DNA of 64,000 bases from Escherichia coli (GTDB taxonomy: Bacteria > Pseudomonadota > Gammaproteobacteria > Enterobacterales > Enterobacteriaceae), in assembly GCF_003334315.1 (NCBI RefSeq), contig NZ_QOWR01000002.1; one strand, written 5' to 3'. Of the stretch, positions 14,574 through 14,767 are shown piece by piece. Every line of letters starts with the position of its first letter. Position 1 is the first letter of the stretch. The translations under genes were made by a program, and so were the position numbers. The notes under the pieces were generated by a model. That model was not told the origin of the DNA and made no database searches. It was given only the letters and a program-made list of their open reading frames with translations.

Positions 14574-14767
14574 CGCCTTATCCGCCTACAAACGCATGAA
14601 GATTCAACATGTTGCAATAGATTTTGTAGGCCTGATAAGCGTAGCGCATCAGGCATTGAGCACCTAATGCCGGATGCGGCGTGAACGCCTTATCCGGCCT
14701 ACAAACGCACGAAGATTCAACATGTTGCAATAGATTTTGTAGGCCTGATGAGCGTAGCGCATCAGGC
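14574..14767. repeat. BIME/REP-type intergenic repeat: two ~80-bp direct copies each containing REP-like palindromes
   Basis: Near-identical units 14574-14654 and 14685-14767 (CGCCTTATCCGCCTACAAACGCA…GTAGGCCTGATAAGCGTAGCGCATCAGGCA) with REP consensus-like GCCTGATGCGCTACGCTTATCAGGCCTAC on the opposite strand. Confidence 0.7.

Follow-up and report, generated by a model that had tools for sequence, protein, structure and literature searches.

The convergent genes yghA and exbD of Escherichia coli are separated, in the 64,000-nt stretch of DNA analysed here (the window), by a spacer that holds a duplicated, REP-like repeat. The question raised by this locus is which type of repeat the element represents and what, if anything, it does for the two genes that it separates. 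We consider it to be REP222, an atypical BIME made of two BIME-1-like units in the 3'UTR of exbBD, dispensable, polymorphic among genomes and likely to exert modest local activities, and we give this reading a probability of roughly 90%. The identity, architecture and 3'UTR position of the element, its dispensability and polymorphism, and an IS621 insertion within it were established in the analysis.

The repeat between yghA and exbD

The spacer measures 271 bp between the convergent genes and contains the whole repeat element, as seen from the ORF list and the annotation. On its left lies yghA (13621–14505, plus strand), which encodes an NADP+-dependent aldehyde reductase, and on its right exbD (14777–15202, minus strand), with the stop codon at 14777–14779. 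Both genes were assigned from the ORF list and from the annotation under the BLAST matches and in MG1655, and their convergent orientation is as the first-pass annotation had described it. The corresponding spacer of MG1655 is also 271 bp long (NC_000913.3, 3150547–3150817). Among the E. coli chromosomes listed as matches, the region was 100% identical to that of strain W5-6 and 99.3% identical to that of K-12 strains. The exbB product WP_000527844.1 carries the PGAP name 'tol-pal system-associated acyl-CoA thioesterase' (locus L004, 1147–1211; locus L013, 655–1389), which looks like a RefSeq product-name error.

The repeat search returned a 72-nt direct-repeat pair with 97% identity (14584–14655 and 14697–14768) and an adjoining 27-nt pair with 85% identity (14558–14584 and 14670–14696). 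The period is 112–113 bp, each copy is about 99–113 bp long, and the element spans positions 14557–14768. The first-pass annotation had proposed two direct repeats of about 80 bp, beginning at 14574, each with one REP-like palindrome and a shared central core. The two repeats and their shared core were recovered, while the dimensions had to be revised: the element starts near 14557, the copies measure about 99–113 bp with a period of 113 bp, and each unit holds two inverted REPs rather than one palindrome.

An edit-tolerant scan with the REP consensus gave six matches in the 64-kb window, four of them inside the 212 bp of the element. Since a 34-mer within six substitutions of a fixed consensus is expected by chance only about 5e-7 times per window, the cluster cannot be attributed to chance. 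All four candidates are imperfect palindromes of 30–40 nt that fold locally into a stem-loop and lie within six edits of the consensus. The GTAG/CTAC tetranucleotide at the foot of the palindrome, which belongs to the published definition of E. coli REPs, was present as CTAC at 14586–14589 and 14699–14702 and as GTAG at 14626–14629 and 14739–14742. The sequences are also extragenic, located between the two stop codons, and multicopy, with a 401-bp query matching a median of at least 34 places per genome.

The element has already been catalogued. In the supplement of a 2026 preprint on REP function, MG1655 3150546–3150582 (AAAAAAAUGCCCGGUUGUGAAAAGCAACCGGGCAUCAU) is tabulated as a mapped bidirectional terminator for exbB:exbD:yghA, and the same table describes the element at this terminator as "REP222, convergent, 27 nt". 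We identify the repeat as this REP222 of E. coli MG1655; the MG1655 RefSeq feature table lists no REP features for the stretch. The proposal of a duplicated BIME/REP unit in the yghA–exbD region was therefore borne out, and both comparisons suggested with it came out in its favour: 92 of 99 positions were identical in a gapped alignment of the two copies, with a single 1-nt indel, and the consensus search found four REPs, the units aligning with REP and BIME-1 sequences. The direct repeat is confirmed as a real, correctly recognised, already known and ordinary element.

A 63-aa ORF with a TTG start runs through the repeat on the minus strand (14578–14769) and had been taken for a repeat artefact in the first-pass annotation. 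The ORF list, the NCBIfam search and the comparison of alleles all agree with this view. The ORF matched no NCBIfam family, RefSeq/PGAP annotates no CDS between yghA and exbD among the matches listed, and the single-unit allele shortens the frame by 113 bp, while the 1,568 genomes with an empty site lack it; neither a conserved frame, nor a family match, nor an annotation thus marks it as a coding gene. The presence of 63 uninterrupted codons is the one point in favour of a small protein encoded by this ORF or by an overlapping plus-strand ORF, but the ORF lies wholly within REP and linker repeats and its length is simply a product of the duplication, which brings the probability of such a protein close to nil. 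Two plus-strand ORFs of 40 aa and 81 aa that overlap the BIME were set aside as artefacts of the same kind.

Architecture and subtype of the element

The four REPs alternate in orientation across the element, and each unit comprises a Y REP and a short Z REP that are inverted with respect to each other and flank a 36-nt linker. Unit 1 opens with a degenerate Y REP (14557–14589, plus strand), identified by consensus scan, alignment and folding, which lies six edits from the consensus; with a hairpin of only −8.9 kcal/mol, this REP is decaying. It is followed by the 36-nt tail-to-tail linker L' (14590–14625), recognisable as a diverged form of the BIME-1 L motif once aligned with the canonical Y-L-z1 units of three further loci, and the same alignment with canonical L places the IHF-like core ATTCAACATGTTG at 14602–14614. 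The unit is closed by a short Z (z1) REP (14626–14655, minus strand; −13.2 kcal/mol), located by consensus scan, naRNA4 alignment and folding. A 12-nt S-like head-to-head linker, TTGAGCACCTAA (14656–14667), connects unit 1 to unit 2 and aligns to the inter-hairpin linker of naRNA4. Consensus scan and folding placed both REPs of unit 2: a Y REP that matches the consensus (14668–14702, plus strand; −20.9 kcal/mol) and a z1 REP (14739–14768, minus strand; −15.3 kcal/mol). The latter begins 8–9 nt past the exbD stop codon and represents the first hairpin of the exbBD 3'UTR. Between them lies a second 36-nt L' (14703–14738), found by repeat search and alignments, with its IHF-like core at 14715–14727.

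In the exbBD sense, the head-to-head linker reads UUAGGUGCUCAA and its naRNA4 equivalent AcGGUGCCGACU, with GGUGC common to both. The S-like linker was also compared with that of a second BIME in the window (3577–3659), which lies between yghU (2635–3549, plus strand) and hybG. There, a Y REP and a long z2 REP are arranged head to head around the linker ATCGTGCACAA, forming a BIME-2-type pair.

According to the published definitions, a BIME-1 consists of one y and one z1 with a long L linker between them, often with an IHF site, and occurs as a single copy, while a BIME-2 combines y with z2 in tandem copies separated by a short S linker. Atypical BIMEs encompass all other REP combinations and chimeras (y, z1, z2, L, S etc.), also in multiple copies, and tandem copies within one atypical BIME locus are well conserved. 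The local short Z was assigned to z1 because three unrelated single-copy loci, downstream of yiiF, between ybiV and ybiT and adjacent to glpD, show the BIME-1 layout, with a single Y followed by AAA(A/G)TCATG(C/A)AAATTCAATATATTG... and then by a short Z. The Rfam alignment shows a 7-nt deletion in the hairpin of the local Z relative to the Z2 of REP325/naRNA4, which indicates that the local Z is not z2.

When aligned with the canonical units, each local unit was seen to consist of y, a long L-type linker and z1, tail to tail and with the ATTCAA-N4-TTG core, as in the IHF-binding BIME-1 (RIB/RIP). The position at the 3' end of a transcription unit and the presence/absence polymorphism among isolates are further likenesses. 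Unlike a BIME-1, which is a single copy with two REPs, the locus has two tandem units with four REPs, and its linker is diverged and confined to this locus; the outer flank TTGTCATCAGT, conserved exactly or as close variants at the three canonical BIME-1 loci, is absent from the REP222 locus. With BIME-2 (REP325/naRNA4, RF02564) it shares the tandem alternating REPs, the S-like head-to-head linker and a copy number that varies between strains, but it has z1 in place of z2, a long L-like tail-to-tail linker and two units only. Because both the single-copy organisation of BIME-1 and the z2 of BIME-2 are missing, the element falls into the atypical class, whose definition it fits directly and without any difference in kind: y, z1, an L-like and an S-like linker, twice over. 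It is an atypical BIME of two tandem BIME-1-like units joined head to head in the BIME-2 fashion. The dimensions and subtype of an element that was already known are thus refined here, and nothing about it is surprising.

The IHF consensus is WATCAANNNNTTR, and L' and canonical L share the same single mismatch to it. All consensus-specified positions of ATTCAA-N4-TTG were invariant in six aligned sequences, drawn from this locus, the allele of strain WL297 and the three canonical L; those substitutions that did occur in the core were confined to N positions. Roughly a fifth of the core positions differ between L' and canonical L, by a hand count from the alignment. As one-mismatch matches to WATCAANNNNTTR are common by chance, the argument for IHF rests on the homology with the L motif. 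On this ground, IHF probably binds at L', and each of the two linkers, in keeping the BIME-1 IHF-type core, would offer it a site, as members of the family often do. IHF and gyrase had both been named as possible partners in the first-pass annotation; because the unit is of the BIME-1 type (Y, L-like linker and z1), IHF appears to be the better-supported of the two and gyrase the weaker.

A 10-bp palindrome within the L core (14605–14614 and 14718–14727; loci L004 and L006–L008) reads CAATATATTG in canonical BIME-1, is broken in WL297 as CAATATGTTG and is restored at the REP222 locus as CAACATGTTG. The palindrome follows a two-step compensatory path, with each of the two substitutions at an N position of the IHF consensus.

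A different reading of the same architecture would make the element a canonical BIME-2, with a strong gyrase site and a role as a source of naRNA4-like, HU-binding nucleoid RNA. The tandem Y/Z REPs and the S-like head-to-head linker are in line with this, and gyrase cleavage sites are enriched in BIME-2, mainly in Y REPs, according to published work. Rfam naRNA4 (RF02564) indeed matched positions 14629–14699 on the minus strand, the exbBD sense, over 71 nt that comprise the Y of unit 2, the S linker and the z1 of unit 1, with 68.1 bits against a gathering score of 59.5; the plus strand reached 50.2, below that threshold. However, the naRNA4 model was built on REP325, described by its authors as Y + Z2, and the match reflects the generic Y-linker-Z pair architecture, being expected for any Y/Z pair arranged head to head. 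The short z1 with its 7-nt deletion in the Rfam alignment and the L-like tail-to-tail linker, as in BIME-1, both argue against BIME-2. In addition, exbD, yghA and REP222 go unmentioned in the gyrase Topo-Seq supplements, whose tables may be incomplete or without gene names, and the 2026 preprint contests the proposed role of naRNA4 and HU in compacting the chromosome. We regard a canonical BIME-2 as very unlikely at this locus and retain the atypical BIME.

Variation among genomes and the IS621 insertion

The 36-nt L' linker was detected in 3,786 of 5,426 complete E. coli genomes (about 70%), at 7,464 places in total, with a range of 1–4 copies per carrier genome. The median of two linker copies indicates that the two-unit form is predominant among carriers. 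A synthetic four-unit query returned no allele with four tandem units, despite the presence of up to four linker copies in some genomes. At BLAST sensitivity, L' was found at no other locus in the 5,426 E. coli genomes and is thus specific to this one; its kinship to L is visible only through the WL297 allele and the alignment.

An empty-junction query, with at least 80% of its length covered, matched 1,568 of the 5,426 genomes (about 29%). In this allele, exemplified by E. coli AF34 (locus L005, 357–394), the stop codons of yghA and exbD are 38 bp apart and the spacer contains the terminator hairpin alone, the shared stem starting 3–4 nt after the exbD stop codon. An empty site was also observed in MOD1-EC7003, which belongs to a separate Escherichia species (locus L012, 1770–1810), between flanks that are 93.6–95.5% identical. 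In a single-unit allele (locus L002), the degenerate Y of unit 1 is combined with the z1 of unit 2 (14751-G) and its outer flank; this allele is the product of a 113-bp deletion via recombination between the units. Only one unit is present, too, in the rare WL297 allele (locus L004, NZ_CP128613.1), where the Y is better and the linker falls between canonical L and L' in sequence. Its yghA and exbD flanks are about 93–94% identical to those of the window and about 93–96% identical to those of empty-allele E. coli and the outgroup, which points to WL297, labelled E. coli, being a cryptic-clade strain or carrying a recombinant segment.

Presence/absence variation has been reported for BIME-1 and length variation for BIME-2, and the REP222 locus exhibits both. 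The element is dispensable and polymorphic, and near-neutrality fits with the decaying Y REP of unit 1 and with the absence of the element from 29% of genomes.

When contigs were scanned for the terminator hairpin, matches came from one Escherichia outgroup and two Paraburkholderia genomes but not from the E. coli species representative. In the two Paraburkholderia genomes (locus L010, 5379–5403; locus L011, 4907–4931), the match is to the 25-nt terminator stem-loop pattern GCCCGGTTGYGAAAAGCAACCGGGC, and runs of A and T border the hairpin of L010. These matches presumably represent chance resemblances or convergent terminators.

The suggestion that such BIMEs can be targets for IS insertion proved to hold at this very site. 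In strain GPEC349-628 (NZ_CM160080.1; locus L009, 320–440 and 1580–1700; locus L013, 1810–2000 and 3240–3270), an IS621 copy interrupts the z1 REP of unit 1, and the end of the insertion directly adjoins the CT of GGCCTAC. A second copy, inverted, lies in the z2 REP of the yghU–hybG BIME (3577–3659 in the window). The segment of about 11 kb from hybG to yghA is inverted between the two copies, each of which borders on the CT in the GGCCTAC tail of a REP. A hybrid BIME lies on the exbD side, with its fusion point inside the Y REP and its parts in the order z1, L', Y, S' and z2; the formation of a chimeric BIME is thus captured in a single strain.

IS621 (IS110 family) is reportedly specific for REPs (Choi et al. 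2003). The case described here resembles REP-targeted IS621 in that the ends abut the CT of the GGCCTAC tail at this BIME; it differs in belonging to the allele of one strain and not to the window sequence. The REP tails are targets for IS621 insertion and recombination, as seen in this one strain.

Position in the exbBD mRNA and expected effects

A bidirectional terminator hairpin is located at 14509–14539, where the inverted repeat, the terminator scan and the published table coincide. It has a 12-bp stem with energies of −20.5 and −22.0 kcal/mol and an A-run on its left that corresponds to a U-run on the minus strand; no U-run is present on the plus strand. The promoter/terminator scan detected no promoter-like site in the region and a single intrinsic terminator, on the minus strand from 14539 to 14509, with the 12-bp stem followed by T7. 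For exbBD transcripts this terminator is distal to the BIME, while those of yghA meet the hairpin immediately past the stop codon, ahead of the BIME. In the table of the 2026 preprint, the convergent yghA and exbBD transcripts are mapped as overlapping at a 37-nt hairpin. Given that the sole terminator is on the minus strand and distal, and that the published transcripts overlap at the hairpin, the whole BIME lies within the exbBD 3'UTR. Transcripts of yghA mostly stop at the hairpin, ahead of the element.

Folding of the region gave z-scores of −6.2 and −7.4, with an MFE of −110.8 kcal/mol for the exbBD-sense RNA (z = −6.2). In this sense the hairpins follow one another at −15.3, −20.9, −13.2 and −8.9 kcal/mol, before the terminator at −20.5 kcal/mol. 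The exbBD mRNA accordingly carries the BIME as four hairpins, with the terminator after them. By analogy with the REP families, these hairpins may serve as a modest 3'UTR modulator of exbBD, acting as partial pause sites and as barriers to 3'-to-5' exonucleases. The idea of an mRNA stabiliser put forward in the first-pass annotation would therefore be applicable to exbBD but not to yghA, whose transcripts end at the hairpin before the BIME.

The hairpin nearest to the stop codon may also dampen ExbD translation, again by analogy with known families. A REP no more than 15 nt from a stop codon has been reported to lower translation because terminating ribosomes stall (Liang et al. 2015, as relayed in PMC12306157). 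Like the stop-proximal REPs of that work (Liang, Rudd and Deutscher 2015; nrdAB is an example), the first REP stem lies 8–9 nt from the exbD stop codon, below 15 nt. Unlike in those cases, the BIME-less allele of exbD also has a strong hairpin 3–4 nt from the stop codon, so that a stop-adjacent hairpin is not in itself a contribution of the BIME.

Functional effects are expected to be small for several reasons. Even in the empty allele, a strong hairpin stands 3–4 nt from the exbD stop, the intrinsic terminator already caps and protects the 3' end of the mRNA, and one Y REP is decaying. Moreover, REP-terminated mRNAs have no longer half-lives genome-wide, according to the 2026 preprint, which describes REPs as context-dependent 3'UTR regulators and reports that REP-flanked convergent gene pairs are more highly expressed.

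It could be argued that the BIME itself is a working terminator or insulator between yghA and exbBD, for example one that stops yghA read-through or allows Rho-dependent attenuation. Some read-through from yghA into the BIME is plausible, given that the hairpin at 14509–14539 lacks a U-run on the plus strand, and the 2026 preprint describes REPs as partial Rho-dependent terminators that are often found inside bidirectional terminators. The mapped overlap of the convergent transcripts, however, is the 37-nt hairpin and not the BIME, and the 29% of genomes without the BIME keep the hairpin only. In the text of the preprint supplement, REP222 appears a single time, in the table of bidirectional terminators, and is absent from the table of Rho binding; REP fragments of 2–4 hairpins displayed no detectable Rho dependence in the preprint. 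A terminator or insulator role for the BIME is therefore considered unlikely. Still more doubtful, though not as improbable as a canonical BIME-2, is the idea that the variation between 0, 1 and 2 units constitutes a natural expression polymorphism which, by altering the first hairpin past the stop codon, would tune ExbD output, and with it the ExbB:ExbD stoichiometry of the TonB system, between lineages; the two candidate IHF sites, 113 bp apart, could in that case add a topological barrier between the genes. The reading that we prefer remains an atypical BIME in the exbBD 3'UTR with small effects.

The value of the finding lies mainly in correct annotation, as a spurious 63-aa gene call is avoided, the BIME subtype is corrected and the element is placed in relation to the real terminator. 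Naturally occurring alleles with no unit or with two, together with the rarer single-unit alleles, would be usable for examining the effects of 3'UTR REP arrays on mRNA fate and translation, and the same usefulness of natural alleles holds for many other BIME loci.
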